In this document: positions 1 through 26,066 of the stretch, one piece after another
How positions within the stretch are numbered: position 1 is the first letter of the stretch
Layout: the number at the start of each line of letters is the position of its first letter
Source: a virus
IMG/VR virus record: IMGVR_UViG_3300031992_000417
Span: 1 to 26,066 of that record
Strand: one strand, 5' to 3'
DNA length: 26,066 bases
Made by a program: the position numbers and the translations under genes
Notes under the pieces: model-generated
Told to the model about the DNA's origin: nothing
The model's database searches: none
What the model saw: only the letters and a program-made list of their open reading frames with translations

Positions 1-127
1 AATAAATAATAAAAATAATAGTAATATAAATAATTTACGATTAGGAACATCATCCCCTAACGGGGCTGATATCCCTAATCCAGATAGTAATCCAAAGATA
101 GAAAAAGAAATTAGTAGAGATGAAGCC
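1..127. repeat. Terminal direct repeat, copy 1 (identical to 25940-26066); marks a closed or terminally redundant 25,939-bp genome
   Basis: Base-by-base comparison by eye shows 1-127 equals 25940-26066 with no mismatch. The reading frame of the ORF starting at 25434 continues through it. Confidence 0.93.
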
Positions 128-208
128 GAACTTATAGTTAACCCGCAATGGGTTTCCCCCACTCTACTTCTTACTTCTACTGGAAAATATTTTAGAGTTA
201 AAGATTAA
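2..208 (+). CDS. 3' end of the rep-like ORF that begins at 25434 (wrap-around continuation; 2-127 duplicate 25941-26066)
   Basis: Position 1 is the third base of the codon at 25938-25940. The frame stays open (...NNLRLGTSSPNGADIPNPDSNPKIEKEISRDEAELIVNPQWVSPTLLLTSTGKYFRVKD) to TAA at 206-208. The terS RBS follows immediately. Confidence 0.7.
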   Translation: MNNKNNSNINNLRLGTSSPNGADIPNPDSNPKIEKEISRDEAELIVNPQWVSPTLLLTSTGKYFRVKD

Positions 209-228
209 ATTGATAGGAGGGAAGTTTT

Positions 229-597
229 ATGGCGCTGACTACTAAACAAAAAGTATTTGCTGAAACATATATTGCTAATGGTTTTAACGCATTAAATGCG
301 TATAACGTAGCGTTTGGGGGCGGTCAAAAAAACAAACCGTCTTATCCTTACACATTATTAAAGAAACCTGAAATCCAGGAATATATAGAGCAAAGACGTA
401 AAGAAATGTATGAAAGTTTAAACATAGACAGTATGCGCGTAATGACAGAAATTGCCAAAATCGCATTTCAAGAAGAGAACAGCAATACCGTCTATGCTAA
501 ACTAAAAGCATTAGAGTTGTTAAGTAAAAATTTATCATTACAAACACAAAAGACCGAAAATAAAGATATTATTGAGGTCCAATTAATGGAGGATTAA
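229..597 (+). CDS. terS: Terminase small subunit (Terminase_2-like N-terminal HTH)
   Basis: AGGAGGG at 215-221 lies upstream of ATG 229. MALTTKQKVFAETYIANGFNALNAYNVAFGG fits the 'LT.KQ..F...Y...GN...A...AGY' small-terminase pattern. The gene sits upstream of terL. It has no in-frame TAG and ends in TAA. Confidence 0.78.
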   Translation: MALTTKQKVFAETYIANGFNALNAYNVAFGGGQKNKPSYPYTLLKKPEIQEYIEQRRKEMYESLNIDSMRVMTEIAKIAFQEENSNTVYAKLKALELLSKNLSLQTQKTENKDIIEVQLMED

Positions 598-598
598 T

Positions 599-838
599 AT
601 GATTGACTTTGAAGCAAAGAAAGCAGAAATTGAAGAGAAGTGGAAGCCTTGCGCCGAAGCGTGTAATGACTTATTAAAGGCATTAAATGAGTTCCGCAGT
701 ATTTCATTAGATGATTGCGACAAGAATAATACAGAAGAAGTCTAGAATTGTATGGCGCTTGGTCGCGACATAGATAACCGCACAATTTATATTTTGCGTT
801 CCCTATTGGTTCAACACGGGAATGTTTTGTTCTTATGA
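599..838 (+). CDS. Hypothetical protein (79 aa, one in-frame TAG at 743-745)
   Basis: ATG 599 starts two bases after the terS stop (TAATATG). The TGA at 836-838 overlaps the terL ATG (ATGA). It is open only if TAG is sense. No family recognised. Confidence 0.55.
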
Positions 839-2076
839 AAATCCAAGTTCATAAGAACATTTTTAATGCCGTTTATTTACCATATTTAGAGGATTTTAGC
901 ACACGCTTTATTGTTTTTTATGGCGGCGCTGGTTCGGGCAAGAGCCATTTTATCGCGCAACGATTAGTATATAAGGGGTTGAAGTCATAGCGCAAGATTT
1001 TAGTATTGCGTAAGGTCAATCGCACTACCAAAGCATCTACATTCTAGTTGCTTCTGGATACGGTAAGCCAGTTCGGCATTTACAATATGTGTAGTATAAA
1101 CCGCACTGATTTTACCATAACTTTGCCAAATGGCACCCAATTTTTATGTATGGGGTTAGACGACCCTGAAAAGATTAAATCAATCACCGGCTTAACTGAC
1201 GCTTGGTTGGAGGAAGCAACTGAATTTACTATGGACGATTTTAGCCAGGTAAATTTGCGTATTCGCGACCCCAAAGCGAAGGATTAGCAGGTGGTTTTGT
1301 CATTCAACCCAGTTTCAAAAGCCAATTGGTGCTATCTACAATTTTTTGCTGACAATCCAGAATTGGATGAGTTTAGGAAAAATGTTGTAATAGTTCATAC
1401 CAATTATTTGGATAATCCGCATTTACCAAAAGAATATGTTGAAACATTATTGTAGATGAAAAAGACTAATGAAGTCTACTATAAGATTTATGCTCTTGGT
1501 GAGTTCGGCAGTTTGGATAAGTTAGTATATAACAATTGGCAGGTAATGGATTTTGACCCATAGAAGATAAAAGGACCATTGCTTTGCGGACTTGACTTTG
1601 GATATACAAATGACCCCACGAGATTTATCGCGTCTATATTATGCGAAGACGAGGGGCGCATCTATGTATTCAAAGAATGGGGTGGCACCGGCTATCTTAA
1701 TGATTAGATTGCTGATGCGATAAAAGAAATGGGTTTTGCTAAAAGCACGATATGCGCTGATAGCGCTGAATAGAAAAGTATAGATGAGATAAAGCGTGCG
1801 GGCGTATCGCGCATTAAGCCGTGCGCGAAGGGCAAAGGCAGCATTTTATAGGGCATCCAAAAAATTCAATAGTTTGAGTTAGTTGTAGCCCCGTCTTGTA
1901 AAGAGACAATTGAAGAGTTAAGTAATTATTCGTGGAAAAAAGATAAAAACACGAATGAATACATAAATGAGCCAATAGATGCGTTCAATCACTGTTTAGA
2001 TGCTTTGCGGTATAGTATGTAGTGTGTTGAAGTGCGTGCCCCATTGGCTACAATAAAGAAAGATTTACTGTTTTAA
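835..2076 (+). CDS. terL: Terminase large subunit (PBSX/Terminase_3-type ATPase plus nuclease)
   Basis: Walker A FYGGAGSGKSHF, then LEEATEF, IYALGEFG, CGLDFGYTNDPT and DAFNHCLDALRYS motifs. There are 10 in-frame TAGs and no TAA/TGA until TAA 2074-2076. I checked every codion-free reading of the frame codon by codon. Confidence 0.92.
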
Positions 2077-2090
2077 GGAGGTCTATATCA

Positions 2091-3470
2091 TTGATTACAT
2101 TAAATAGTAAAGAGGAATTAACTATTCCGGTTATTAAGCGCATTGTAGAAAATCATTATGGAAAAGAACTACCACGATTATAGAAATTAGAAAGATATTA
2201 CAAGAATGATAATGATATTCATCGTCGTATAATGAGTGATAATACAAAACCAAATAACAAGACTGCCAACCCGTATGCCAGTTATATTACTGACACATTG
2301 GTTGGTTATTTTATGGGCGAACCAGTTAGTTATAATGCGGAAGATAAGAACTTATTACAAGATTTAAATATGATATTTGAATACAACGATGAAGCAGATG
2401 AGAATACTGAATTAGCAAAAGACGCCAGCATTTATGGTGTAGCATTTGAAGAGTTGTATTTCAGTGAAGACGACAAGATGATTAGGTTCAAGCGTTTAGA
2501 CCCAAAGGAAATTATTCCTATTTATGATAAGACAATTGAATAGAATTTAATCGCAGTAATTAGATATTATGAAGACTTTGATTATGTTGAGGAAAAGAAA
2601 AGTTTCGTTATTGAGATTATTGATGATGTTGAAGTAAATAGATACCGCACAGGTGAATTGTTTAATTCTTTTACTCTATTGGAAAATTATCCCCATTATT
2701 TTGGTATGGTGCCCGTCGCTATCTATGAGAATAACGAGGATTAGATGGGCGACTTTGAGAAGGTCATTGACCTAATTGATGCGTATGACAAGATGGAGAG
2801 CGATAGCCTAAATGATTTTGAATATTTTGTCGATGCTTATCTGGCTCTTTACGGATTTACCGCGGATAAAGATGACATAAAGCAAATGAAGGAAAATCGT
2901 GTGCTTTTGATGGATGAAGGCACAAGTGCTGAATGGCTTATCAAGAGTGAGAATGACGCAACGACCGAAAATATGAAGAACCGTTTAGACACTGATATTC
3001 ATAAATTCGCTAAATGCCCGAACCTCGCTGATAAAGAGTTCGCAAGCAATGCGTCTGGTGTTGCTATTAAGTTTAAGTTATTAGGCACTGAAAACCTCAC
3101 ATCTATTAAAGAGCGCAAATTCAAGAAAGGTTTACAATAGCGTTTAGAACTTATGAGTATGATAGGCGGATTATTAAATACTGGTTTTGATTGGCGTGGT
3201 ATTGAAATTATCTTTACTCGTAATATTCCAAGTAATGATATTGATATTGCCAATATGGTTAATACATTATCTGGCATTGTAAGTGACGAAACATTGCTCG
3301 CGCAAATTCCATTTGTAGAAGATGTTGAGGCAGAATTAGAACGCCTTAAAACGCAAAAAGAGGAAGATAAATTAAACAATCCATTCTTTGCTACTCCTGG
3401 TGTAAATTACGAAACAGCCGCGCAAGCAAAGGATAAAGAAGCGGAGGATGACAATAATGAATTGGACTGA
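2091..3470 (+). CDS. Portal protein (SPP1 gp6-like)
   Basis: TTG 2091 lies 9 nt after AAGGAGG (2075-2081). Motifs: ...LERYYKNDNDIHRR...KPNNKTANPYASYITDTLVGYFMGEPVSY..., ...GDFEKVIDLIDAYDKMESDSLNDFEYFVDAYL.... Four in-frame TAGs (2181, 2541, 2742, 3138). TGA stop at 3468. Confidence 0.9.
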
Positions 3471-3846
3471 AATTTTAATGAAAATTTTTGAGTTGTGTGT
3501 TATTCCTCTTCTTGGAATTTTAACTACTTATTTAGTCCAGTGGATTGCTGTAAAAAAAGAAGAAATTAAAGAACACACTCATAATGAAAAAGTAAATAAG
3601 TATTTAGATTTACTTGAAGGCACAATTTCAAATTGTGTCATCGCTACTAATTAGACTTATGTTGAAGCGTTAAAAAACTAGAATGCTTTTACTGCGGAAG
3701 CGCAAAAGCACGCTTTTGAGATGACTTATAAACAAGTTATGCTAATTCTTACTGATGAAGCAAAGTAGTATTTAACCGAAGCCGTTGGCGACCTTCAAGA
3801 ATACATTACCGCATAGATTGAGGCGCAGGTGAATTTAAATAAATGA
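3457..3846 (+). CDS. Membrane protein, LL-H-type holin-like (N-terminal TM helix plus helical tail)
   Basis: ATG 3457 lies 9 nt after GGAGG (3443-3447). ILMKIFELCVIPLLGILTTYLVQWIAV is a hydrophobic helix. The tail ...VIATN[TAG]TYVEALKN[TAG]NAFTAEAQKHAF...AQIEAQV resembles my recollection of LL-H holin family proteins. Four in-frame TAGs. The TGA at 3844 overlaps the next ATG. Confidence 0.55.
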
Positions 3847-4733
3847 ATATATTTAATGAATATTCACAACCAACTATTGATTTCATCTGGGCTCTACTGG
3901 CGGCGGCTTATGAAGATGAAGACAAGTTAGACAAGATATTAGAAGATATCGCTGATGATGTATTCAAAGAAGTTAGTAAAATCTTAAAGGATTTAGAAAA
4001 ATCCGGCAGAATTGATTTAAATAAAAAGATACGATTGGGCGACCATCCTGCGATATACAAGGCATTAAAAGATATTGAGAATAAACAATGGCATAGATTT
4101 ACTGAATGGTGTTGGATAGGAAATTAGGTAATTACAGAGAGTTTAATGCGAACTTATCGTGATACATTGTTATGGACTTACAATACATTTAGACCTAAAA
4201 TCCCAACAGCACCAACAGAGAAATCATTAGATGTTTAGATAAAAATTACTGATACATATATCCATAATCATTATCTTAAAATTCCTTGGTGCTAGGATGG
4301 AAAAATATATAGCGATAGACTATGGGGCAATGTTGCGAATTTCCAGAGTAAATTATCATATGTGCTAGAATAGGGTATCGCTCGTGGCAGAGGCGTTGAT
4401 TGGATGATGGATGAATGGCGCAAACTTACCAAGACTGCGGGTTATGAAGTGGCAAGGCTACTGAAAACAGAAACAATGGCTATGTGGAGTGAAGCAACAA
4501 AGGAAGCATATTTAGATATGGGAATTGAGTATGTAGAAATAATTAACCCAGAGCCTTGTGATGAAGTTTGTAGCGATTATGTTGGCGAGATTATCCCATT
4601 AGAAGAAGCAATCATTGGGGATGAATTGCCGCCTTATCATCCTAATTGTGTATGCGATTTCCACGCTTGGCGCGAAGATGTAAGCGCTGATGAATACGCG
4701 GCTTACAAAGAAGAATACGATGAAGAGGACTGA
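3843..4733 (+). CDS. Head morphogenesis protein (SPP1 gp7 / Mu F family)
   Basis: ATGA overlap with the upstream gene. ...IPWC[TAG]DGKIYSDRLWGN..., ...ARLLKTETMAMWSEA..., and C-terminal ...LPPYHPNCVCDF (the PP.HPNC.C signature). Four in-frame TAGs (4125, 4236, 4293, 4371). TGA stop. Confidence 0.85.
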
Positions 4734-4779
4734 AAATTTTTAGGACAATTTTGTTTCACCGATTTGTTCTAATTTTCAT
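4733..4779 (+). promoter_or_regulatory. Conserved intergenic module, copy A (23-nt exact core AAAATTTTTAGGACAATTTTGTT plus a 24-nt related flank)
   Basis: 4733-4755 is identical to 23175-23197. The next 24 nt match 16/24 and end in the shared AATTTTCAT. Both copies start at or next to a stop codon and precede a T5-7A7-8 tract and a promoter-like element. Confidence 0.55.
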
Positions 4780-4802
4780 TCCTATTGGACGAAAAAATGT
4801 AG

Positions 4803-4831
4803 TTCATTTTTAAAAAAAATTAAATTAATAT
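4803..4831 (+). promoter_or_regulatory. Candidate promoter for the scaffold/capsid operon (TTCATT, 17 nt, TAATAT)
   Basis: It is positionally homologous to the better promoter at 23257-23285 when the two conserved intergenic regions are aligned. The -35 is weak. Confidence 0.3.
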
Positions 4832-4876
4832 AGAAAAGGTAGAACTCATAGGAGGGCTACCGAGGAGGTTTTTATT

Positions 4877-5461
4877 ATGGCAGAAGAATTAAATAAGGGT
4901 TCAGTTGTTGAAACATCAACTGCGGAGAACGCAGGGGATAACGCACCGAAAACTTATACGGAAGAAGAAGTCCAGGCTCTCTTACAACAAGAGGGAGACC
5001 GCCGAGTTTCAAGTGCGTAGAAAAAGTGGCAGAAAGATTTGGAGAACAAGATGGCGGAAGCGGAGAAGTTAAAGAATATGGACGAAAGCCAACGCAAAGA
5101 ATACGAATACGAACAGAAACTTCGCGAACTGGAAGACCGCGAGCGTGATTTTGCTATTACTCAAAACAAGTTAGAAGCAACCAAAGTGCTCGCTAATCGT
5201 CATCTGCCAGTAGAATTTGTTGATTATATCGTAGCGGAAGATGCCGAAACAATGATGAATAATATTACTACTTTTGAAAAGATGTTTAATAGTGCCGTGG
5301 CTGATGCCGTGGCTATGAAGATTGCGTCTCCCGCACCTAAAACGGGTGCTGCTAAATAGACCGGGCTTACTCGTGAAGAGTTTAAGAAGTTGTCTATTTC
5401 ACAACAAGCGGAGATTTACCGCACTAATCCAGAATTATATAAGCAGTTATCCCGTGATTAA
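4877..5461 (+). CDS. Capsid scaffolding protein (DUF4355-like, coiled-coil, acidic)
   Basis: GAGGAGG at 4862-4868 precedes ATG 4877. ...TYTEEEVQALLQQEGDRRVSSA[TAG]KKWQKDLE...KLRELEDRERDFAITQNKLEATKVLANRHLPVEFVDYIVAEDAE... fits scaffold proteins found upstream of HK97-fold capsids. Two in-frame TAGs (5018, 5357). TAA stop. Confidence 0.8.
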
Positions 5462-5493: not shown

Positions 5494-6435
5494 ATGAGTT
5501 ATACTGCTATGTCTCATACTGTTTATGAGAATTTTGTTTTAGAAAATAAACTTGAAGATTTACTTATTACTAATCTTGACCTTAACCAGTTCGCTACTCA
5601 CGACGATAGTCTTGTTGAAAATCCTGGTATGAAGAAGGTTATCCACACTTATACTTCTAGTGGTGATGTTGAAGACCTCGCTATGGGCCAAGGCAATACT
5701 GATGGTATTGTTGTTTCTTTCAGCGATGAAGAGTATGAAGTTGGAACCACACAAGGTCGTTTCTCTTACTACGACGAGCAAGAAATGACTGACCCAATGG
5801 TTGTTGATGCTGGTCTCGATGGTCTCGCAAAGAGAATGGCTAACGACCTCACTGAAAAGGTTGTTGCTGAATTTGATAAGGCTGATTTGATTGCTTCTGG
5901 CGTTAATTGGTCCTTTGATAGTTTTGTTGATGCTATCGCTCTTTATCCTTATGAAGATGAAGCAGGTTTATTCTGCTTAATCAATCCCGCACAAAAGGCT
6001 GATATCCGCAAGGCTCTCGCTGACGACCTTAAATATGTTGAGGATTTTGCTCGCACTGGTTATATTGGTTCTGTTTGCGGTGTCCCTATTTATGTAACCA
6101 AGGCTGTTGCTGATGGCACTGCTTTCATTGCTACCAAGGATGCTGTTACTATCTTCACCAAGAAAGGTGCTGAAACCGAGCAAGAGCGTGATGCTAATAC
6201 TCGTTTAAATACTGTTTATGCCCGTAAGGTTATGCTTGTTGCTATCACTGATAAAACTCGTGTTATCAAGATGACTGCCAAAAATTGGTCTTATACCGCT
6301 GTTGTAAGTCCTGATGTTGATGATATTGGCACTTATTTTGAGCGTTCTGGTTCCGCTGGTTCTTATGTCTATACCAAGACTACTGATACCGCATTAGACG
6401 CAAATAAGACCTATTACACAAGAGAATTAGCCTAA
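5494..6435 (+). CDS. Major capsid protein (HK97-fold family)
   Basis: A 313-aa uninterrupted ORF after AAGGAG, directly downstream of the scaffold and followed by the strongest terminator in the window. ...VYENFVLENKLEDLLITNLDLNQF...NPGMKKVIHTYTSSGDVEDLAMGQGN... resembles Firmicutes siphophage capsids. It has no TAG. Confidence 0.88.
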   Translation: MSYTAMSHTVYENFVLENKLEDLLITNLDLNQFATHDDSLVENPGMKKVIHTYTSSGDVEDLAMGQGNTDGIVVSFSDEEYEVGTTQGRFSYYDEQEMTDPMVVDAGLDGLAKRMANDLTEKVVAEFDKADLIASGVNWSFDSFVDAIALYPYEDEAGLFCLINPAQKADIRKALADDLKYVEDFARTGYIGSVCGVPIYVTKAVADGTAFIATKDAVTIFTKKGAETEQERDANTRLNTVYARKVMLVAITDKTRVIKMTAKNWSYTAVVSPDVDDIGTYFERSGSAGSYVYTKTTDTALDANKTYYTRELA

Positions 6436-6454
6436 TTTATAATTAAATATAGAG

Positions 6455-6493
6455 GGACCTACCTGCTGATGTAGGTAGGTCCTTATTTTTTTT
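6455..6493 (+). terminator. Rho-independent terminator after the capsid gene
   Basis: A 10-bp GC-rich stem GGACCTACCT (6455-6464) / AGGTAGGTCC (6473-6482), an 8-nt loop, then TTATTTTTTTT. Confidence 0.9.
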
Positions 6494-6510
6494 AATTGGA
6501 GAGAACAATT

Positions 6511-6804
6511 ATGTTAGATAGAATTAAATTATTATTAAATATCCTTGATGATGAATAGGACGAATTACTTTCTACTTTAATTGCTCTTTGTAAAGATGAA
6601 GCATATATTTATTGTAATTTACCAGCATATAATGCGGCATTAGATGGCGCAGTTATTCAAATGGTAATTGAACGCTACAATCGCATTGGCAGTGAAGGCG
6701 CTACTTCATAGTCTTCTTCTGGTGTTTCAATGAGTTATGATAGTTTTTATAGCGATAAAGTTAGATGGATGTTGAATAAACAAAGAAAGGTGAAGATGAT
6801 ATGA
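6511..6804 (+). CDS. Head-tail connector (gp6-like, Phage_connect_1 pattern)
   Basis: MLDRIKLLLNILDDE[TAG]DELLSTLIALCKDEAYIYCN...VIQMVIERYNRIGSEGATS[TAG]SSSGVSMSY... follows the 'lk..L.i..d..D.ll..li..a...i..Y.n' connector pattern. Two in-frame TAGs. The TGA overlaps the next ATG. Confidence 0.78.
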
Positions 6805-7121
6805 TTAAACGAGATTTAATTCAACGCATTCGTGTCATCCCAACTGATGACGCGCAAGGCGGTTCAACAATTACAATTGAACCTTATGAGTTTATTAAGG
6901 CGCACGTATCTATTACTGCTACTGGTGAATAGATTACACAATATGGTATTACTACATAGAAATTAATTAATGTAGTTACTGATATAAAATTAGATGAATA
7001 TATTCATACCCGCTATGTTTTTAATGGCGATAAATATAAACTTATGAGCCAAGTAAAACGCGGTCGTGAATGGTTCAGCGTGATGATGGAAGTTATTGAA
7101 GAGGAGGCTGAACCGGTATGA
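6801..7121 (+). CDS. Head closure / head-tail adaptor protein (SPP1 gp16-like by position and size)
   Basis: ATGA overlap at 6801-6804. 106 codons with two in-frame TAGs (6930, 6957). It lies between the connector and later head-tail joining genes. Its TGA overlaps the next ATG. Confidence 0.7.
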
Positions 7122-7450
7122 TGAAGTTTGATAAAGACACCAATGTTATCACAATGATTGCGAAAGATACTGGGGATTTTATCATTAATGTAGAGAATTA
7201 TAAATTGGATGAGGGCGACGAGGTTTATTTTACTGTTAATGACAAATTAGAGAAACCCACCGCACTTATCTCAAAGAAAGTCACTGTATTTAATGAAGAT
7301 AACACCGCAATTATCCGCTTAACTTCCACGGATACTAATTTACAACCTGGGACTTATTACTATGATATCCAAATCAATACTGCGGATGGGCGTGTTGATA
7401 CTGTTTTAGGTCCCGCTAAATTTAAAATTTTAGGAGGCGTGAAATTCTAA
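7118..7450 (+). CDS. Small Ig-like beta-sandwich protein (BppU_N-like pattern)
   Basis: An uninterrupted 110-aa ORF. ...[24 protein letters not shown]...[29 protein letters not shown]... resembles the N-terminal Ig-like domain of baseplate or fibre anchor proteins. TAATG overlap with the fibre gene. Confidence 0.7.
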
Positions 7451-9576
7451 TGAGTGAAGAAAAAAAAGTATTAGATACTGAAATTGTTGTATCTATGTCT
7501 AACGCCACTTATAAAGGTGAAGTAGGACCACAAGGACCCAAGGGAGAACCAGGAGATAGCGCTTATGACATTGCTGTTAAGAACGGGTTTGAAGGCACAG
7601 AAGCAGAATGGCTTGCCTCTTTACATATTGATGGAGATTGGGAAGGACAAATCGGTTCTGCTGGTAAAAGCGCTTATGAAATCGCAGTTGATAATGGATT
7701 TGTAGGCACTGAAATAGAATGGTTAGCGAGCCTTAAAGGTATTAAGGGTGATACCGGCGCAACCGGACCGAAAGGCGATAAAGGCGACACCGGGGAAACT
7801 GGGCCACAAGGACCAAAAGGCGATAAAGGTGATACTGGCGCAACTGGACCGAAGGGTGATACTGGACCTGCGGGGCAAAATGGCGCTACACCTGTAAAAG
7901 GTGTTGATTATTTCACCGCACAAGATATTAATGATTTTATTGCGTAGGTCCCACAACCAGATTTAACTAAATATAATAAAGATATTTTTCTTAATAATGA
8001 TGAAACATTAACAGATGAAATTTATAACATACTTTATACTTGGAATACCGCGCAAACTGATTTCCGTTTAGGTTATATCCCAGGGTATAATTTATATTTC
8101 GAGAACCGTTATGTATTTGCGGTAAAACGAAGTCAATCTTATGGCTTACCAGAATTATTTTATTGGGATTATGATACTTCAACTTCTTGTTATTATATGA
8201 TAGGGACATTCCCGTAGTATTCTTCTACTAAAGGGTTTTATTATCACTATATAGCCCCATCAACTTCGGCATTTAAATAGGCTATTTCTGCTAATGTAAT
8301 TCGTTTAAAAGACGAAGATAAATTGGCTTCAACCAATTTCTTGCCACAACAATTTGCTTATATTAAAGAAAATTATGCGACCAAAGCCTATGTAGAAGAG
8401 ATTGTGCGCGGTATTGAAACCGGTGCTTTAAAGCGTTCTGTCGTTTAGACTTTGCCAACAGAGGATATAGACGAAGATACTATCTATATGGTGCCAAAAA
8501 CAGGTAGCACCGGTGATGTTTATAATGAGTATTTGTATGTAAATAATACTTGGGAATTAATTGGTAGCACAGAAGTTGATTTAACTAATTATGCTACAAA
8601 GAGTTATGTTGATGGCGCAGTATTTAGTGGGGATTATAATGACTTAACGAATAAACCAACTATTCCATCTGCTTATACCTTACCCACCGCTACTACTTCC
8701 TCTCTTGGTGGTGTTAAGGTTGATGGCGAGACCATTACTATTGAGGATGGTGTGATTAGTGCGGCTAGCGGTGGTGGTGCCACTTATACTGCCGGTAATG
8801 GTATTAACATTGATGAAAATAATGTTATTAGTAATAATAATTCAACAATAAATTTATTAAACGCAGAAATGACGGCAATAAATACTACCAGTATTCACAC
8901 CAAAGACGAACTTATTGAATTATTAAAACAAGAAAAAATAATATATGTAAATGATGTTACTTGGTATGGCACTCAAATTTCAAGCACAGAATTAGGATTA
9001 CGGAATAATAGAATTAAATATGAAGATTCTACAAGTATGAGCGGACTAGTTAGCACATCCATTACGAGCACGATAACTTTATATTCCGAGCAATATTATT
9101 AGTTAGTGCTAAATAAAAAAGCGACTTTATCATCTAATGATAATAGCGCGCAATGTAGAACTTGGTCGTCTCCAATGGTATCAACACAATTACCACTTTG
9201 TGTTATTGGCTATAATACATATAATGGAAAATATGTTGGGAAAAATATTTAGGATTTAAATAATCGTGTTCCTGTGAATAATACGGCTGATGGCTCTTAT
9301 AAACTTACATCAACTGTTACTTCTGGTTCCGCTACTTATGCTTGGGTTGAAGATAGTTCCGGTTCAAGTTTTAGTGGCGATTATAATGATTTAACTAATA
9401 AACCAACTTTATTTAGTGGAAATTATAATGACTTAACTAATAAACCTACAATCCCAACTGGGGAAACTTTGCCAACGGCACCAGCGGGGGATGGAACTTA
9501 TTTATTGAAAGTTTCTGTTTCTTCTGGAACTCCAACTTATTCTTGGGAAAGCGTTGTAATAGGAGGTAGTTATTGA
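7450..9576 (+). CDS. Collagen-like fibre protein (708 aa)
   Basis: Track ORFs 7450-7947, 8452-9102 and 9274-9576 share one frame, and the gaps between them are open except for TAG (6 in total). It has Gly-X-Y tracts, a duplicated SAY(D/E)IAV.NGF.GTE.EWLASL motif, [33 protein letters not shown] and three SG(D/N)YNDLTNKPT motifs. All of these are typical phage fibre motifs. TGA stop. Confidence 0.85.
7738..7884 (+). repeat. Collagen-like Gly-X-Y tract (17 consecutive triplets; a shorter 5-triplet tract lies at 7516-7560)
   Basis: [49 protein letters not shown] read directly. The underlying DNA is an imperfect tandem repeat. Confidence 0.92.
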
Positions 9577-9577
9577 T

Positions 9578-18600: not shown

Positions 18601-21600
18601 ATATTATAGAGGCGGGGCTTACGATGACGGACTTATTACATTAGATGAAAATGATAGTAATTATTTAGATTGTGATTTAACCGCAAGGGTTCTTAATCCA
18701 AATGGAGCAATTAAATATTATAATCATTATCATCAAGCGCTTTATGAAGATGAAGACTTTGGCGAATTTATCCCATATCAAGTCAAAGTTTTAGATAAAT
18801 ACGCGGGTTTACACGCTGGTCCTGCTCGTAAATATAAAACTCTCGCAATGATTATATAGCGCGATACTTATACAATTATTCAAGAGCGTAATGGCTGGGG
18901 TAGATTAAGAGAGTATCCTAATGCGTGGATTTTATTAAGCGCTACTGAACCTATTACTGGTCCTGGTTAGAACCCAGACTATGACAATGGTTATGGTAAG
19001 GCTACTACTGAAACCAACATTAATTTAAGGTCTTCACCAAGTTTAATGTATAATAACAATATTATTGGCGTTATTCCAACGGGCACAGAGGTTGATATTA
19101 TTGGTGAAATGACCCGCGTTAGTGGGAGAAACTGGTATCCAGTGCGTTATTTGACTTATCAAGGCTATGTTGTTGATGAATATATCAATATTACTAAATC
19201 ATATTTAGGAGAACAACTAGTTATTCCATTTGGTGAATATGTTGATATTACAAAAATGACAGTAGATAGATTATGGTGCTATGCCCCTGATTTTGAAAGT
19301 TGGATTAAAGCAGAAGATATTAGTTTTAATCAAGCAGGTAAATTATATAACGGATTAAAAATTGATGTTATTGATTTAGATGGAATTGATTTCAGTAATG
19401 TATCTTCATTAGAAGATATGGGTATTGATATTTAGAAGTATGTATTGCGTTTCCATAATGATAGTAATTATAGTTATAGTGGCGACTATACATACAACGC
19501 ATTTAGTCAATTACATAATATTGATGTTGTATATCCAGAAACAATTTACAACTATTCTTGTATTTATTACCAAGATAATAAAGCAGAACAAAATAGATTA
19601 GGCGCATCTGCGTTTAGTTGCTCCATCAGTGATTGGAACCCAGATTGGGATACATTCATTGCTACCTCTTGGCAAACAGAAGAAGTTTATGGAGAAGCCG
19701 TGGCTAAAAATGGCACACAAACAACTGGTAATATTAATATCCGTAAAGAAAAAGATGTTAATAGTGAATTAGTTGGGACTGTTCCAATAGGCGAAACAGT
19801 GTCTATCACCGGTGAAAGTTCTGTGGTTGGTAGTTATACTTGGTATCCTGTTCTTTATGGAGAATACGCTGGATATATCCGCACTGTTAATTTAACTGTG
19901 GTTAGCGAATATGGTGGGACTATGGAAATTAATCCTCAATTATATCGTGATACAGTATTAACATTAACCTGGGATTATTTCGGTTTTGAACGCAACTTAT
20001 ATCGTCCTACTGGTTATGGTGAAGGTATTTACTTATGGAACCCTCGTTCTTGGGATAAAGACAATATTAAATTTAGTTTTGAAGAATTAATTAAATGTGG
20101 CACTCAATATGTTGTATATCCAATCTTTAACCCAGACACTTATAAGATTTGGGTATAGGGTAATTATTTAGGAAAATATGTATAGAGAAGTATTAACGAC
20201 CCATATTATGGGACCACATACTATCATATGTATTTAAATAATCCAGGTATTAAAATAGATTTAAGCGATGAAACACACGAATATAATTTATATAATACCG
20301 ACCATTATAGTATTTATGGTGCTGGTGAATGGCGTAATGATTTAGGCTATGGCGGGCACGAATATTCCGGTAATTATTTCTATATTAATAGTGGTGAAAA
20401 CGCATATTATAACACACGATTAGGTCCTATTGTATTTTCTCTTTCAAGCAATTATCGCTTTAATGGTATAAGTATGCCATATAAAACAATGTCTCCATCA
20501 AACGGGAATGTGCCAGACGCAATCCAAAATACTAAAAATGGAGATGTGTTGATTGGCGATGTATCGAATTATCGTTATAGCCCAACTGATATAGTAGGTA
20601 TTGGTAATGACTATGAAGGAAGAGAAAGATAGTATTACATTACAGGCAAATTAAGCCAATTACAAGATAATACAAATCTTATTGGTTATCATTATGATGT
20701 GCCTGATAACTCCACTGATTATGATTTACGCAATCAATGGTGTCGTGGTATTATTTATGAAGTTATTAGTTATTATGACTTTATGATGATACATTATTAT
20801 GTGCCAGTGCCAAAAGGTTTATGGTATCGTTATAATGGAGAAACATTAAGAATGCCTGATAATGGATTATTTGATTTACTTACGGGTGAATTTAAACAAG
20901 GATTTAGGGCGAGCAAAGACAGCGATTTAGTTCCTACTGGTTTTAGTGGCACATTGGGTGATGGCAAAGAACTTATTTTCTTACGCAATCAAAATATTAG
21001 TGATAATGCTTATGACTTATTTAATGGTTGGGAATATGAAACAACCGATGTGTCTATTATTAAACGGACAACTGAAAATACTATTGGATATCAATAGCCT
21101 GATGAATATAGTATTTAGATGCGTAATTTAACCGCTGGGCTTATCTTACCAATTGCTAAACAAACTAATGATAGTTAGAATTAGGTTGTTGGTTCTTGGG
21201 ATAAATCTTGTGATGAATGGATAAAACGCGATAAGTTAGAAACTGTCAGTGGATACAATAGTATTGTCGCAGAAGAAGCAACTTATAGTTTAGTGCCTGG
21301 AACTCTTTCAAATTTCTATGTATATAATGACCCATTAGCAGTAAGTCATATTGGAGAATAGAGTGATTATTCTTATGGCAATGCCCCTGGGGTTATTAAA
21401 GTATATTATGTATGTCCTACTCCCGTTGACGGAATGCTATTTGACGGAGCACATTGGATACCCAGATACTATACAAGTTCTGCTACAACTCCATTAAATA
21501 AGAACTATGTAATTACCAAAGATACCAATTATTACAAATTCCCAATCGCAGACAATGAATACCGTATAAATAGTTATTTATATGGTGAGCGCATCACAGT

Positions 21601-21688
21601 ATTGTATGTATGCCAGAACAACACTAACTGGGGCTATACTGGTTAGGGTTGGATTGAAATTGATGGCAATACCAGCGAAGTATTATAA
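12617..21688 (+). CDS. Giant tail protein (3,023 codons): Dit N-terminal domain fused to long arrays of adhesin-like repeats, three 'LVRDxIPV' modules and SH3b-like modules
   Basis: GTG 12617 lies 9 nt after AGGAGG (12602-12607). Fifteen track ORFs (12617 through 21646) all sit in frame 2. I translated every gap and found only TAG (33 in total) and no TAA/TGA until 21686. The N-terminus MLINGVDISNLGIKLYDRVL...FRNIKLSFLF...AFYRISQLTAMLKQATIVFDD fits distal tail protein (Sipho_tail) N-domains. Then come many ~70-90-aa units with (I/V)x(V/I)xYY strands, for example TIEVKYYDEADNG at 13517 and NIVVNYYRDDNDGG at 15758 (MucBP-like pattern). Recurrent modules lie at 15251-15454, 17825-17980 and 20747-20905. 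SH3b-like modules lie at 18776-18955, 19004-19192, 19721-19894 and 21509-21670. Confidence 0.85.
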
Positions 21689-21708: not shown

Positions 21709-22056
21709 ATGAATGAAAATTATTACCCAATTACATTTGATGGGGACAGTTTCATTATTAACAATAATGGGACTGCCCCAGCCCCTTGTAAGATTACAAT
21801 TGTCCCATAGGTAGATTTTGTAAATCTTACAATTGAGGGTTTAAGTGAAAAACCAATTAGTGTTTCACAAGTAAGAGCAAATGATACATTAATTATTGAC
21901 GGAGAGGAACGCACAATTACTATTAATGATAATACAGCATTTGATAGATATAATGGTTGGGAGTTCCCAAAAGTTTAGCCAGGATAGAATACGGTAAAAA
22001 TATTAAACGGCACACATATATAGATTTCAATAGAATTTAATATGAGGTATTTATAA
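21709..22056 (+). CDS. Distal tail protein, C-terminal domain only (115 aa)
   Basis: GGGGGA lies 8 nt upstream of ATG 21709. ...FIINNNGTAPAPCKITIVP...LTIEG....TLIIDGEERTITINDNTAFDRYNGWEFPKV[TAG]PG[TAG]NTVKI... matches the C-terminal 'i.N.Gt...P.i.i......l.iD......v...g.n....f..L.pG.N.i' pattern of siphovirus Dit proteins. Four in-frame TAGs. TAA stop overlaps the Tal ATG. Confidence 0.8.
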
Positions 22057-23174
22057 TGTTTAAAATATATAATAGTAGTCGTCGTTTTTTAACCATATTA
22101 GACACAGGGTTAAAGAATGTTTATACCACTGATAGTTTAGACACTGGTTGGAGAAGTTTATGTTTTTAGGTGCCGTGTAAAACCGAATATCTCCAATACA
22201 TAGAAGAAGAAAATTATATAGAAACCGAAGATTATAACTATATCATAAAAGAAATAAAAAGTGAAGATAATATTTTTTTAACAGTCTATTGCCAACCTGA
22301 TATTGATGATTTTGAAAGTCAGGTTCATCCATATTTTGATGTTAATCAATTAGGGTTAAAACAAGCCTATGAGTATTGTTTAAATGATACTGGTTGGGAA
22401 TTATCTTATCATAGTTCTAATTATACGAGATTACAGAATGAATATTAGGGTAGTAATAAATATAAAATTGAAATGATACGCAAAATGGCAAGTGATTTTA
22501 ACCAAGAGATATGGTTTGATACAAAAAATAAAATATTATATATTTATGATTGGTTAGGCAAGGACTTCGGGGCCTTTTATTCTAATGAGTTAAAATTAAA
22601 ACTATTAAAATAGTTTTCAAATACTTATGATTATGGAACAGTGGTATATCCTATCCCAAATAAAAAAATGAGTGGTAATATTTGGACTATTAATGATGGA
22701 AAAGATTATATTGAAAATTATGATTATACCACAAAACGCATTGTAAAATTTTATAAAGATGATAATGCTAAATATGCGGAATAGTTATTACGAGGAGCAT
22801 AGCAATATTTAAATGAAATTAGTGTGCCAAAAACTACTTATGAAATTGCTTTAACAGATATTGGCTCATCTGTTGCTCTTGGAGATAATATTGTTATTGT
22901 TGATAAAATTAAAAATATTAAAATTAAACAAAGAGTGGTAGAAATTATACGGTATCCATTAGAACCAGAAAAAAGCAAATTAATCATATCTAATTTACCA
23001 AGTAATTTTTATAAAATGTTTATAGCAGGTAACAGACAATTAGAAAAAGATATGACATTTGTGAAAGAAACAATAGAAACTAATGGAGATTTAATTAATT
23101 TGAATGATACGCATATTAACGACATTATAGATAAGTTAGACAAGGCTAATATTATTACTATTAATTTTGATTAA
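22056..23174 (+). CDS. Tail-associated protein Tal (Prophage_tail / TIGR01665 N-terminal domain, gp27-like); no obvious C-terminal enzymatic extension
   Basis: TAATG overlap with the upstream gene. ...SLCF[TAG]VPCKTEYLQYIEEENYIETEDYNYIIKEIKSEDN...LKQAYEYCLNDTGWEL..., ...AE[TAG]LLRGA[TAG]QYLNEISVPKTTYEIALTDIG... Five in-frame TAGs join track ORFs 22170-22448 and 22824-23174. TAA stop. Confidence 0.85.
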
Positions 23175-23221
23175 AAAATTTTTAGGACAATTTTGTTCTA
23201 ACGGTTTATAAGAATTTTCAT
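23175..23221 (+). promoter_or_regulatory. Conserved intergenic module, copy B (partner of 4733-4779)
   Basis: 23175-23197 is identical to 4733-4755, and the following 24 nt match 16/24. It starts immediately after the Tal stop codon. Confidence 0.55.
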
Positions 23222-23256
23222 ATACTTATGAAAAGTCAAGGCATAGCGATTTTCAC

Positions 23257-23285
23257 TTGATTTTTTTAAAAAAATATTATATAAT
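23257..23285 (+). promoter_or_regulatory. Sigma70-type promoter (TTGATT, 17 nt, TATAAT) for the TAG-free accessory genes
   Basis: -35 TTGATT at 23257-23262, a 17-nt A/T spacer (TTTTTAAAAAAATATTA), and -10 TATAAT at 23280-23285. It lies about 50 nt upstream of ATG 23337. Confidence 0.6.
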
Positions 23286-23336
23286 ATATTTGTAAAAAAG
23301 ATAAAAAATAATTTATTTGAAAGGAAATAATAAAAA

Positions 23337-23510
23337 ATGGCTAATAAATATAGTGTTACGATTGATGTTAAGACTGATATGGAACTATCTGCGACTGATT
23401 TGATAGATTATTTCCGCACGTTAATTCTTGAAGGGGACGCCGTTATGCCGTGTGATGCTGAAAGAATTACGATTAAGTCTAACGGTTATGAAAATGTTAT
23501 TTTTGGATAA
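23337..23510 (+). CDS. Hypothetical small protein (57 aa, TAG-free)
   Basis: MANKYSVTIDVKTDMELSATDLIDYFRTLILEGDAVMPCDAERITIKSNGYENVIFG. It is preceded by the 26-nt leader ATTTGAAAGGAAATAATAAAAAATGG, shared exactly with the next gene. TAA stop. It falls below the ORF-track length cut-off. Confidence 0.55.
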   Translation: MANKYSVTIDVKTDMELSATDLIDYFRTLILEGDAVMPCDAERITIKSNGYENVIFG

Positions 23511-23575
23511 AAAAATTTAATATCATATATATAACATAAAGTTAGAAATAAAAATTTGAAAGGAAATAATAAAAA

Positions 23576-24076
23576 ATGGTTCTGGAAATTATTGATGTAA
23601 AGTATCGTGATATGTTTGGTATTAACCCTAAATATGAACGCATTATTGAAAATAAACTTAATGATGCGGACGGTTTTAACGCATTTAAGGTAATGGTGAA
23701 TACCGCATTAGAAAATCTTACAAAAGAAATTGAAGGCAAAGTGCGAATTGGTTTGATTGAGCCTCATATGTTTGGGAAATATTATGGATATAATAATGAC
23801 CCTCATAATTATCATCGTGATGTATTTGAAGGTTATGCTCCTCATCCTTATTCGGCAAAACAATTAAACCAGAAAATTGGCAATCTCTATGCCCCGGCCC
23901 GGCTCACTAAATATGTTAATAATGGACTAATGAGACGAGGAAAATATGGAGTAAAAAGTGAGACTTATAGTTATTATTTGCCTTATGATTTTTTCACGAC
24001 GAATGACCCCACGATTAAGTTTGTCCCTAATGATTGGGAGCGTGAAGGTATGAGACTTACATCTAATGATTTTTAA
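23576..24076 (+). CDS. Hypothetical protein (166 aa, TAG-free, His/Tyr-rich middle); no family recognised
   Basis: An uninterrupted ORF with the same 26-nt leader as 23337. It is followed by a 3' UTR and an intrinsic terminator. Confidence 0.78.
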   Translation: MVLEIIDVKYRDMFGINPKYERIIENKLNDADGFNAFKVMVNTALENLTKEIEGKVRIGLIEPHMFGKYYGYNNDPHNYHRDVFEGYAPHPYSAKQLNQKIGNLYAPARLTKYVNNGLMRRGKYGVKSETYSYYLPYDFFTTNDPTIKFVPNDWEREGMRLTSNDF

Positions 24077-24142
24077 TTCGTTTATCACTATGTTTTATAA
24101 TGTTTATATAATATAAGCAGTTATTTTTAGTAGTCATACGGA

Positions 24143-24176
24143 ATAGCACACCTAATAAAAAGGTGTGCTATTTTTA
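24143..24176 (+). terminator. Rho-independent terminator
   Basis: A 10-bp stem ATAGCACACC (24143-24152) / GGTGTGCTAT (24162-24171), a 9-nt A-rich loop, then a T run. Confidence 0.85.
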
Positions 24177-24199
24177 TACCCATTTTTAGGAGGTCTAGA

Positions 24200-24373
24200 A
24201 TGAGAGACGCAATTAACGAGTTAAATAAAAACTCAATTTCAAAGGCTACTGGTATCTCATACGGACGCCTCCGCAAATACGCATCTGGTCTTATTAAAGA
24301 TTTAACACCAGAAGAACAAGAAAAAATCTACCAATATCTAATAAATTTAGCCAATTTATTTAAAAAAAATTAA
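24200..24373 (+). CDS. Small helix-turn-helix protein (57 aa, TAG-free)
   Basis: AGGAGG lies 7 nt upstream of ATG 24200. ...NKNSISKATGISYGRLRKYASGLIKD... is an HTH-like segment. TAA stop at 24371. Confidence 0.65.
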   Translation: MRDAINELNKNSISKATGISYGRLRKYASGLIKDLTPEEQEKIYQYLINLANLFKKN

Positions 24374-24398: not shown

Positions 24399-24992
24399 AT
24401 GGAAGACAAATATGGCACACCCGCCATTAATTTGCCAGAAGAAGACGAAGAAGAAATTTGGATGCCGGCACCAGGCTATGAGGACCGCTATGAAATTTCA
24501 AGTTTTGGCAATTTAAAAAATAAAAAAACAGGATTATTACGAAAATTAGATAAAGACCATTTCGGGTATCCAGTCGTATGTTTAAGAAAATACGACCCTA
24601 TTATAAAGAAGTATAGAACTCATTCTGTTTATATCCATAGATTAGTATGTGAAGCGTTTAATGGACCACCTACTGCTGAAAATAATATCTGCGACCATAT
24701 AGACCGATGTATCGTGAATAATTATTATCTCAATCTTCGTTGGACCGACCACAGAGGAAATAAAATGAATAGTAAAACTTCTTCTGCTCGGCGCCCACAT
24801 ATTAAAATTAAAACTACTCCTATTGTTCTATTGGATATAAATGGGAATTTTATAGAACGATTTAATAGTATATTAGAAGCCCACGAAAAAACTGGTATTA
24901 GTATATAGTAGATATAGCATAATCTACGAGGGGCACGGGAACCTTTTAAAATCGGGTATTTTAAGACCGAAGCGGATTATTTTGACAAATAA
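24399..24992 (+). CDS. Free-standing HNH homing-type endonuclease (NUMOD4-like N-terminus, HNH_3 core, C-terminal IENR1/NUMOD1-like DNA-binding helix)
   Basis: AAGGAGG lies upstream of ATG 24399. YEISSFGNLKN (NUMOD4-like), HRLVCEAFNGPP...CDHIDRCIVNNYYLNLRWTDHRGN (HNH). With TAG as sense the ORF runs through TAG TAG ATA TAG (24906-24917) to ...FNSILEAHEKTGISI[TAG][TAG]I[TAG]HNLRGAREPFKIGYFKTEADYFDK and TAA at 24990. Confidence 0.82.
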
Positions 24993-25010
24993 AAAAAAAT
25001 TTGATATAAT
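24982..25010 (+). promoter_or_regulatory. Near-perfect sigma70 promoter: TTGACA, 17 nt, TGATATAAT (extended -10)
   Basis: TTGACA at 24982-24987, a 17-nt spacer, TG at 25002-25003, and TATAAT at 25005-25010. It overlaps the last codons and stop of the HNH gene. Confidence 0.75.
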
Positions 25011-25097
25011 ATAATTACAAAATAAATAAGTTCTTTTTTAAAAAATCACTAAACAGGATAAGGGCTTATATTATTTTCCTTCTTAATTTCATTGATG

Positions 25098-25197
25098 GTA
25101 GAGCCGTATTATAATATTCAGGGTTTTTTTCCTGGGATTTTTAGCCATTTTCCCACAACTCCTTTCACCTCCCCTGAATATTCTAATGCGGCTCTAT
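25098..25197 (+). other. Long inverted repeat / hairpin (26-bp stem, 48-nt loop with a nested stem) in the leader downstream of the consensus promoter
   Basis: GTAGAGCCGTATTATAATATTCAGGG (25098-25123) pairs with CCCTGAATATTCTAATGCGGCTCTAT (25172-25197). There are 23 Watson-Crick pairs, one G-U and two mismatches. The loop contains TGGGA...TCCCA. Confidence 0.8.
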
Positions 25198-25235
25198 TAC
25201 TAAAAACAAATTTATTCCAAAAGGAGATACAAATA

Positions 25236-25415
25236 ATGACAAAGACCAAAAAGATTTATTCAAGTAAAATAGCCGGAGCCTTATATAGATAGGGTTTTAA
25301 AATTATCGGCACTGAACCCAATCCGCACAAACCGTGGTTGGATGTGTTTATTTTTAATGATACAGATGCTTTGAATGAGGCGTTTGATAAGATATTAACC
25401 AATAGAAAATCATAA
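25236..25415 (+). CDS. Small DUF5659-like protein (59 aa, one in-frame TAG)
   Basis: AAGGAG at 25221-25226 precedes ATG 25236. MTKTKKIYSSKIAGALYR[TAG]GFKIIGTEPNPHKPWLDVFIFNDTDALNEAFDKIL fits the 'a..L...Gf.........vf.F.d' pattern. TAA TAA stop at 25413. Confidence 0.65.
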
Positions 25416-25433
25416 TAAGAAGGAGTATGCCAA

Positions 25434-26066
25434 ATGCCAAATTATAAACAAGCACCTAAATTATATCATAACAAAACTAATTTTAATAGTGATAACTATT
25501 ATAATCTACCGCAGGAATTAATGGATTGTATTTTTACTCAAATTGATGGTAAAAGTGGTAATCAAATTAAATTAATTATCGTATTACTCGGCACATTAGG
25601 TAATGGAACATTCGGTGTGAGCGAAAAATGGATATGCGAGCGCACAGGAATGGTCCAATAGACATATAGTAAAGCGCGCCAAGCGTTGATAGAACGCGGT
25701 TGGGTTTATGTTGAAGATGGTAAATTATATGTATTGCCTTCTATCATTCGTTATGGGTTTCATTATCCAGAAGGAATTAGTGATGAAGAGAGGGCGGCTA
25801 TTAGGGAAAAAACAATTTCAAAATGTGTCAATGACATCAAAAAGCAATATGGGTTGGAAGTGAAGACACAATTTGAAAATGTCCCATAGGCACAATTTGA
25901 AAATGTCCCATCGGGACAATGTGAAATTGTGTATAATATAATAAATAATAAAAATAATAGTAATATAAATAATTTACGATTAGGAACATCATCCCCTAAC
26001 GGGGCTGATATCCCTAATCCAGATAGTAATCCAAAGATAGAAAAAGAAATTAGTAGAGATGAAGCC
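25434..26066 (+). CDS. Putative replication initiator / winged-HTH DNA-binding protein (5' part; continues to 208 via the terminal overlap; 237 aa in total)
   Basis: AAGGAG lies upstream of ATG 25434. ...GNQIKLIIVLLGTLGNGTFGVSEKWICERTGMV[TAG]QTYSKARQALIERGWVYVEDGKLYV... is wHTH-like, as in phage replisome-organizer/DnaD-like initiators. Two in-frame TAGs (25659, 25887). Iteron-like repeats lie inside its 3' part. Confidence 0.6.
25867..25931 (+). repeat. Iteron-like direct repeats (24-nt period, 2 exact copies plus 1 degenerate) followed by an AT-rich tract; candidate origin
   Basis: CACAATTTGAAAATGTCCCAT occurs at 25867-25887 and again at 25891-25911. A degenerate third unit, GACAATGTGAAATTGTG, lies at 25915-25931. 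After that comes about 45 nt of almost pure A/T (25931-25975). Confidence 0.6.

Follow-up and report, generated by a model that had tools for sequence, protein, structure and literature searches.

The window analysed here, the whole 26,066-nt stretch of IMG/VR virus record IMGVR_UViG_3300031992_000417 (positions 1–26,066), is a phage genome in which TAG serves as a sense codon throughout, and nothing encoded in it appears able to decode UAG, as far as sequence analysis reaches. An earlier note, made from the letters alone, had described a TAG-recoded phage with no visible recoding machinery, whose amber codons must be decoded by something supplied in trans. The lack of machinery was borne out, since ARAGORN, Rfam, PHROGs and Pfam gave no match to a tRNA, a release factor (RF) or an aminoacyl-tRNA synthetase (aaRS). 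What the note missed is that the window is a member of a tRNA-less phage family that mixes three genetic codes.

Read-through of TAG raised the coding content of the + strand from 4,697 to 9,138 amino acids (aa), counted over open reading frames (ORFs) of at least 100 aa, and yielded a single ORF of 3,023 aa. Read-through of TGA or TAA on the + strand gave no comparable gain. The final gene set comprises 28 genes, every one on the + strand, with 99 in-frame TAG codons spread over 20 of them. The earlier estimate had been about 100, including some in the replication and terminase genes, and the large terminase (TerL) gene indeed holds 10 and the gene for the replication initiator (Rep) two. TAG makes up 33% of the glutamine (Gln) codons (99 TAG, 167 CAA, 30 CAG), and all 28 genes end in TAA or TGA, none in TAG. 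When TerL was aligned with that of 17 IMG/VR relatives, TAG faced Q 555 times, K 102 times and E 83 times, and some TAG-aligned columns are invariant Q. The natural inference from these alignments is that TAG stands for Gln. Decoding of TAG as pyrrolysine was considered and rejected, because Q dominates the TAG columns, invariant Q positions included.

The window is a complete, circularly closed genome. Positions 1–127 are repeated exactly at 25940–26066, which gives a unit of 25,939 bp and matches the 25.9 kb of the earlier note. The same sequence is present in ENA contig ERZ27257202 k141_2620257, whose 26,080 bp equal 25,939 bp plus a 141-bp overlap; judging by the record name, the 141 in ‘k141’ would be the assembler's k-mer length, as for a circular assembly. 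On the strength of the end repeat and the length of the ENA contig the genome is taken as circular and complete, and the 127-bp terminal overlap is the closure of the assembly, not a biological repeat.

The search for a tRNA was negative at every level. ARAGORN at default settings found no tRNA and no transfer-messenger RNA (tmRNA) in the window, and with lowered thresholds, on both strands of the circularised genome, a check that the earlier note had proposed, it found no tRNA at all. The intron and mitochondrial modes gave noise only, with no CUA anticodon among the calls displayed. Rfam at E ≤ 10 gave no tRNA or tmRNA and four chance-level matches to small RNAs or small nucleolar RNAs. A covariance model built from three prophage tRNA(CUA) genes (see below) and run with filters off scored 89–93 bits on its three source suppressors and at best 8 bits (E 2.1) on the window. 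The two strands together hold 14 stem-loops of the U-CUA-R anticodon type, where chance would give 12.6, and the only one touching intergenic DNA is weak and AU-rich. The non-coding DNA, previously put at under about 1 kb, amounts to 913 nt (4734–4876, 6436–6510, 10487–10550, 23175–23336, 23511–23575, 24077–24199 and 24993–25235, plus two short gaps). The statement that no GGTTCGA-type T-arm lies in intergenic DNA also held: GGTTCGA does not occur in the window, and the T-arm motif GTTCRA does not occur in any intergenic DNA. The three ‘TTCTAAT’ sequences that had been listed as candidate anticodon loops, at 4767–4773, 23196–23202 and 25180–25186, are essentially where they were placed, but the second reads TTCTAAC and the third starts at 25181. 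The first two lie inside a pair of 47-nt repeats and the third in the 3' arm of a 28-bp stem, both described below.

The proteins were equally uninformative as to a decoder. PHROGs was run for all 28 proteins and Pfam for the 18 without a clear structural assignment, the giant ORF included, and neither gave a match to an RF, an aaRS or a tRNA-modification family. ORFs 599–838, 23337–23510 and 23576–24076, for which the earlier note had suggested such a search, had no match to any Pfam or PHROG family. Between the stop codon of Rep and the start of the small terminase (TerS) gene lies a gap of 20 nt (209–228), which corresponds to the tRNA slot of related prophages and is empty here. Because the genome is complete and carries no tRNA, RF, aaRS or modification domain, UAG would have to be decoded in trans.

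Related prophages provided a positive control for these searches. A TerL-alignment scan of GTDB genomes returned mostly Bacillota prophages with about 50% TerL identity to the window. Four GTDB loci have in-frame TAG within TerL, and three of these lie on 42–156-kb contigs of Bacillota metagenome-assembled genomes (MAGs). These three (L022, L025 and L029) are TAG-recoded integrated prophages with TerL 51–52% identical to that of the window. Upstream of the terminase genes of each, ARAGORN found a canonical tRNA(CUA) whose CCA end is encoded (L022, 8822–8899; L025, 5848–5926; L029, 3726–3804). The tRNA finder is therefore valid for this lineage. L022 and L025 adjoin DNA of 56–57% GC, taken as host flank, and L022 has a TAG-free tyrosine integrase. 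In standard-code prophages of the lineage the same slot is often filled, with Asn, Trp, Arg, Ser, Met or Tyr tRNAs. In the prophage tRNA(CUA) genes the pair of the anticodon stem next to the loop is an A–C mismatch, which leaves effectively 4 bp. An exact-match search of IMG/VR with the anticodon arm of a related suppressor gave no match and then 11 unrelated ones, none from the family's samples. Another GTDB locus, L018 (JAZNBJ010000071.1, 20.8 kb), is TAG-recoded and tRNA-less, with a TerL 53% identical to that of the window and containing 3 TAG codons; it was binned in a Candidatus Gastranaerophilaceae MAG, and either the phage contig was mis-binned or it hints at the host.

Relatives were collected from TerL searches of IMG/VR and JGI metagenomes and from look-ups via the 166-aa ORF at 23576–24076; an exact look-up of the capsid protein found no record. 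About 35 non-identical relatives were obtained, and the complete-looking contigs measure 24.4–26.8 kb. No integrated copy was found in the family, all contigs being free-standing and no longer than about 26.8 kb. The record names of the relatives point to cattle rumen (STEW19 scaffolds, Cattle_ERR2019370_scaffold_714822), and one is named for brushtail possum. ARAGORN found no tRNA in any of about 40 family loci, whether TAG- or TGA-recoded, and the tRNA(CUA) covariance model had no match in family loci among the 40 loci searched.

On the basis of ORF-length gain and in-frame stops in TerL, family members fall into three groups, which read TAG as Gln (code 15), read TGA as Trp (code 4) or use the standard code (code 11). 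In the TGA-recoded members, TGA aligned with W (94) and F (45). On a TerL neighbour-joining tree (loci L001–L017 and L098–L138) codes 11, 15 and 4 are interleaved, which implies several independent code switches in the family. TAG is the stop codon of 0–1 of about 20 genes in the closest standard-code relatives and of 6–7 of about 19 genes in TGA-recoded members. Shine–Dalgarno motifs of the GGAG type (20 of the 28 genes in the window), SH3_3 domains, a DnaD-like Rep and TerL relatives that are mostly Bacillota prophages suggest a Bacillota-type host.

The distribution of TAG over the genes was compared with that of the other Gln codons. Eight genes of the window are TAG-free, against 5.6 of 28 expected if TAG were random over Gln codons, and so there is no standard-code early module. 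Three adjacent ORFs at 23337–24373 have only 4 Gln codons in total, and their TAG-free state is thus not significant. Over 21 non-redundant TAG-recoded loci, TAG was depleted in the genes for the scaffold (5/116, p = 1.6e-9), capsid (3/46), TerS and Rep (5/55), and enriched in those for TerL, the minor head protein, Neck1 and HNH. None of the conserved genes lacks TAG throughout the family. In the window's subclade (five genomes) the capsid gene has TAG at 0/24 Gln codons (p = 4e-5), and Rep has 1–7 TAGs in each subclade genome. The pattern suggests a slightly costly codon that is avoided by the genes with the heaviest expression. The ratio TAG/(TAG + CAG) is 0.75–0.85 in the window, L001 and L131, 0.67 in L136 and 0.25–0.55 in other subclades; the synonymous ratio TTG/(TTG + CTG) is 0.86–0.91 in the window, L001 and L131 and 0.80 in L136. 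No signature of escape from RF1 was seen, the base after TAG not differing from that after CAA or CAG (p = 0.16). A C directly before in-frame TAG is found in 4% of cases, versus 18–22% before CAA or CAG (648 in-frame TAGs, family-wide). CTAG is avoided, in other words, perhaps as a mark of restriction or repair in the host.

The giant 3,023-aa ORF (12617–21688) bears on how efficient the decoder must be. It contains 33 in-frame TAGs, its length is kept at 2,950–3,011 aa in the relatives compared, and its homologue in L131 has 45 TAGs in the available portion. With 90% read-through per codon, only about 3% of the giant protein would be full-length. From the 33–45 read-throughs per giant ORF we infer that UAG is read essentially as a sense codon. 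The presence of TAG in the replication initiator, together with the lack of any conserved TAG-free gene, suggests that the decoding capacity is in place when the phage DNA enters the cell. With a complete genome and a family that are both tRNA-less, these observations point to a decoder that is already in the cell.

We lean, with slightly less than even confidence, towards a pre-existing tRNA(CUA) acting in trans, whose gene would most likely be carried by a Bacillota-type host, in its chromosome or in a resident element. UAG would then be an ordinary Gln codon in a tRNA-less, siphophage-like phage of a cattle-rumen family, and the genes of this phage could be expressed only in cells that read UAG efficiently as Gln at the start of infection. 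Such a cell would supply the cognate tRNA(CUA), charged by its own glutaminyl-tRNA synthetase (GlnRS), with little or no competition from RF1. If not chromosomal, the suppressor gene may be borne by a mobile element resident in the host, for example a recoded prophage resembling the tRNA(CUA)-bearing L022, L025 and L029, and the phage would use the decoder passively.

Several points weigh against this proposal. The Gln assignment comes from alignments, which show the residue that TAG replaces and not the residue inserted. The searches yielded no host; none of the family contigs is integrated, and the nearest genome hits have only about 50% TerL identity. We know of no bacterium with a constitutive, efficient and cost-free Gln amber suppressor. 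Sense-like decoding of UAG should not be tolerable to a host that uses the standard code, has active RF1 and ends many genes in TAG, and the explanation is thereby shifted towards a recoded host or a state that some other element imposes. Finally, the interleaving of codes 11, 15 and 4 implies repeated changes of the decoding environment, which the proposal leaves unexplained.

One alternative is a recoded host. The host itself would be code-15-like, lacking a functional RF1 and carrying tRNA-Gln(CUA) on its chromosome, and the code 4 and code 11 sisters of the phage would track hosts with matching codes. The genome-wide recoding with no standard-code early module, TAG usage near synonymous equilibrium with no bias in the +4 context, and the sense-like state needed for 33–45 read-throughs per giant ORF are all in keeping with such a host, as is the tRNA-less state of the TGA-recoded sisters, a pattern which Cook et al. 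ascribe to code-4 hosts. However, the known bacterial stop reassignments all involve UGA (Shulgina & Eddy 2021, PMC8629427), and the sole prokaryotic genome-wide reassignment of UAG reported by 2026 is that to pyrrolysine in archaea, the only UAG reassignment mentioned in a 2026 preprint on translation-table prediction. The interleaved codes would in addition require many jumps between three host codes, and the related recoded prophages are flanked by ordinary-looking host DNA, as the Topaz and Garnet prophages are found in standard-code hosts. We hold a recoded host to be unlikely. We also see only a small chance for the specific version in which a rumen host of Bacillota type reads UAG constitutively as Gln, as the first bacterial code-15-like organism, with the family tracking hosts of three codes. 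The decoder could instead be brought by a helper, the phage being productive only when a co-infecting TAG-recoded phage expresses tRNA(CUA), possibly with RF2 or an anti-RF1 activity; it would then depend on the helper for translation, and would not be a satellite in the structural sense. Recoded phages and prophages with tRNA(CUA) are indeed known from the same broad lineage and from the gut and rumen, Borges et al. have put forward that recoded phages might sense co-infecting phages via suppressor tRNAs, and the window is small, with no tape-measure or endolysin gene recognisable by PHROGs or Pfam. Yet, unlike known satellites, it brings its own replication initiator along with a complete complement of packaging, head and tail genes (terminase, portal, scaffold, capsid, connector, tail tube, Dit-C and Tal are all present). 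TAG near synonymous equilibrium in almost every gene, Rep included, argues for a decoder in every infection and not just in the occasional co-infected cell, and the exact-match search with the anticodon arm gave no viral contigs from the family's own samples. We therefore consider dependence on a helper distinctly unlikely.

The remaining explanations place the decoder, or its trigger, in the phage. A phage factor might make the host read UAG by blocking the synthesis or activity of RF1, whereupon the near-cognate tRNA-Gln(CUG) would take over; candidates are the 166-aa ORF 23576–24076, another small ORF or the structured RNA at 25096–25199. The TAG-free state of three adjacent small ORFs in the window, the retention of ORF 23576–24076 in relatives of about 26 kb, where it is likewise TAG-free, and the covariation and strand preference of the RNA-like element would fit such a factor. 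Against it, both the ORF and the element are confined to the window's subclade, the TAG-free state of the ORF is not significant and is matched by no conserved TAG-free gene family-wide, its structural model shows weak similarity to winged-helix replication-initiator domains and none to translation-related proteins, and near-cognate decoding is unlikely to sustain 33–45 consecutive read-throughs. We regard a phage factor as improbable, and the unrecognised phage factor that the earlier note offered as its fourth option is weakened accordingly by the restriction of ORF 23576–24076 to one subclade and by its winged-helix-like model. A non-canonical suppressor tRNA (armless, split, permuted or intron-containing) that escapes the detectors is the explanation given in the literature, Borges et al. 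having suggested that missing tRNAs are non-canonical, and 913 nt of intergenic DNA could hold one small RNA. The relaxed, intron and mitochondrial ARAGORN runs, Rfam and the lineage-specific model were all negative on both strands, however, CUA stem-loops occur at chance frequency, the intergenic folds are terminators or the 28-bp-stem element, which has no CUA loop, and the same negative was obtained in about 40 related loci. A hidden tRNA has next to no chance of being the answer.

The candidate phage factors were characterised as follows. Homologues of ORF 23576–24076 are found on relatives of about 26 kb (14 aligned, 39–87% identity) and were not found in other TAG-recoded subclades; they have TAG at 0/7 Gln codons (p = 0.1, not significant). 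An AlphaFold (AF2) model of the protein, with a mean predicted local distance difference test score (pLDDT) of 80.7, is weakly similar to winged-helix initiator or regulator folds (E 0.04), and the protein thus models as a winged-helix-like DNA-binding fold. We rejected it as a recoding factor because it has no Pfam or PHROG match, is present in one subclade only and gives this model. The helix-turn-helix (HTH) ORF at 24200–24373 seemed to correlate with recoded members, but its homologues carry TAG, and the standard-code coverage of the region amounts to essentially one locus; it was rejected as well.

The conserved structured element at 25096–25199 (+ strand) consists of a 28-bp stem with an inner hairpin and an invariant CTCCTTTCAC, and lies upstream of the operon of a small ORF and Rep. 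It is supported by 10 compensatory pairs and a preference for the + strand, has no Rfam match and has no CUA loop. About 55 nt downstream of the invariant CTCCTTTCAC lies the ribosome-binding site AAAGGAG, to which it is complementary, being in this respect anti-Shine–Dalgarno-like. A model of the element matches only the subclade sharing this replication module, plus L001 weakly. As a tRNA substitute or general recoding device it was rejected, being not tRNA-like, bound to the subclade with this Rep module and not specific to recoded members. Each of the three most stable intergenic folds is a hairpin of intrinsic-terminator type, and a U run comes after two of them. They lie behind the capsid gene (6453–6493, + strand) and, similar in form, at 10498–10529 and 24141–24180. 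Three of the seven larger intergenic regions are accounted for by these terminators, and the others are of low GC and without significant structure, except for the 28-bp-stem element. Two pairs of intergenic repeats were also seen, one of 47 nt with 83% identity (4733–4779 and 23175–23221) and one of 81 nt with 73% identity (23260–23340 and 23499–23579), the latter ending in identical ribosome-binding and start regions. They are probably promoter or operator units at module boundaries.

Recoding without detectable machinery is not peculiar to this genome. The earlier note had held that described TAG-recoded phages are mostly large, a view that is out of date, since recoded clades of 22–34 kb have already been published: Topaz (22 ± 3 kb), Garnet (34 ± 5 kb) and Amethyst (34 ± 6 kb) (Borges et al., preprint). 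Its proposal of decoding in trans is supported as far as the sequences can tell, but its framing of the case as exceptional is not, because suppressor tRNAs were detected in only 40% of TAG-recoded phage genomes by Borges et al., and Sup-CTA tRNAs in 52% of code-15 phages by Cook et al. (2024, PMC11210395). The window resembles the small clades of Borges et al. in its small genome, TAG as Gln, single structural and lysis block, unidirectional GC skew and gut habitat, and the clades likewise mix codes 11, 15 and 4 and include many genomes without a detectable suppressor tRNA. One close relative, Cattle_ERR2019370_scaffold_714822, is named in the convention of their dataset. The likeness to Topaz, Garnet and Amethyst is drawn from their described features. 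Borges et al. also describe recoded prophages of 24 kb that reside in standard-code hosts and have TAG-free integrases, and for other recoded phages a pattern of recoded late genes and standard-code early genes has been proposed. In contrast, the window has no integrase by PHROGs and Pfam, its family was not found integrated, and there is no TAG-free lysogeny or early module; TAG is low in capsid and scaffold and is not concentrated in late genes.

The Topaz-like prophages L022, L025 and L029 share with the window the TerL lineage, TAG as a sense codon and a Bacillota-type module order, but differ in carrying tRNA(CUA) upstream of the terminase genes and, for L022, the TAG-free tyrosine integrase. 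Phages that share the code of their host (code 4 in Mycoplasma and Spiroplasma, code 25 in Absconditabacteria) are alike in having no phage tRNA for the reassigned codon and in spreading this codon through almost all genes, whereas a bacterium that reads UAG as Gln is not known. The large recoded phages (Lak, crAss-like, Jade and Agate) also use TAG as Gln and live in gut or rumen; they measure 150–660 kb and have suppressor tRNAs, sometimes RF2, RF1 or tryptophanyl-tRNA synthetase (TrpRS), and standard-code early regions, none of which is found here. Unlike phage satellites, the window has its own capsid, tail and packaging genes.

Apart from its codon usage, the genome has an ordinary siphophage-like layout according to PHROGs and Pfam, with a GC skew that is unidirectional along the genome and the structural and lysis genes in a single block. 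Packaging and head genes come first: TerS (229–597; phrog_51, E 5e-18; TAG 0/8 Gln codons), TerL (835–2076; phrog_3717, E 9e-76; TAG 10/20 Gln codons), an SPP1-type portal protein (2091–3470, with the start probably at 2232; phrog_64, E 2.5e-142; 4 TAG), a holin-like membrane protein (3448–3846; phrog_13712, E 8e-30; 4 TAG), a minor head protein of the SPP1 gp7 or Mu F-like type (3843–4733; phrog_115, Pfam Phage_Mu_F; 4 TAG), the scaffolding protein (4877–5461; phrog_172; TAG 2/12 Gln codons) and the major capsid protein (5494–6435; phrog_544; 0 TAG). They are followed by a head–tail adaptor (6511–6804; phrog_132) and two small ORFs of the connector region (6801–7121 and 7118–7450; phrog_1084 for the region). 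A collagen-repeat fibre protein (7450–9576; tail-fibre PHROGs; 6 TAG) and a BspA-type leucine-rich-repeat protein (9578–10486; PF13306, E 5e-13; 4 TAG) separate these from the tail genes. The fibre protein has repeated motifs (window 8621–8690 and 9368–9479), and a 37-nt stretch of it (9414–9450) shares 97–100% identity with genes for tail or structural proteins in the PA5oct group of Pseudomonas jumbo phages; this fibre repeat was the sole match in a megablast search against GenBank phages.

The tail region, assigned from matches to phrog_5, phrog_176 and phrog_1407, comprises a Neck1-like protein (10551–11183), a tail terminator (11340–11774) and the major tail protein (about 11755–12138), with a small ORF at 11201–11383. 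Two further small ORFs with no family match (12110–12415, 2 TAG; 12429–12623, 5 TAG) occupy the expected place of the tail chaperones or tape-measure protein. The giant ORF comes next. It takes up 35% of the genome, has SH3_3 as its sole Pfam match and sits at the expected place of the tape-measure protein and the N-terminus of Dit. Downstream of it are a stand-alone Dit C-terminal-domain ORF of 115 aa (21709–22056; PF22768, E 7e-11; phrog_33; 4 TAG) and a Tal-like prophage tail endopeptidase (22056–23174; PF06605, E 7e-28; 5 TAG).

The last part of the genome holds the TAG-free ORFs 23337–23510 (small), 23576–24076 (166 aa) and 24200–24373 (57 aa, HTH), an HNH/NUMOD homing-type endonuclease (24399–24992; phrog_59, PF07463, PF13392; 3 TAG), a small DUF5659-like ORF (25236–25415; 1 TAG) and the DnaD-like Rep of 237 aa (25434–26066 and across the junction to 208; phrog_186, E 5e-9). 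Three 24-nt direct repeats (AGRCACAATTTGAAAATGTCCCAT-like) lie within the Rep gene at 25808–25911, two of them in tandem, and are probably iterons of a replication origin. A fourth copy, at 3618–3641 in the holin-like gene, also forms an inverted-repeat partner.

Decoding of UAG in phages with no detectable suppressor tRNA is a known phenomenon that has had no explanation, and how roughly half of the TAG-recoded phages achieve it is an open question. The present case adds a complete minimal genome and a family with genome-wide recoding. An undetected tRNA is very unlikely to be the answer for this family and is largely excluded by the complete genome, the less than 1 kb of non-coding DNA, the approximately 35 tRNA-less relatives and the ability of the same tools to find the tRNA(CUA) of related prophages. 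In this small rumen phage family the source in trans of UAG decoding can thus be sought in a system that is both compact and tractable, and the family could lead to the bacterial host or resident element that imposes code 15.

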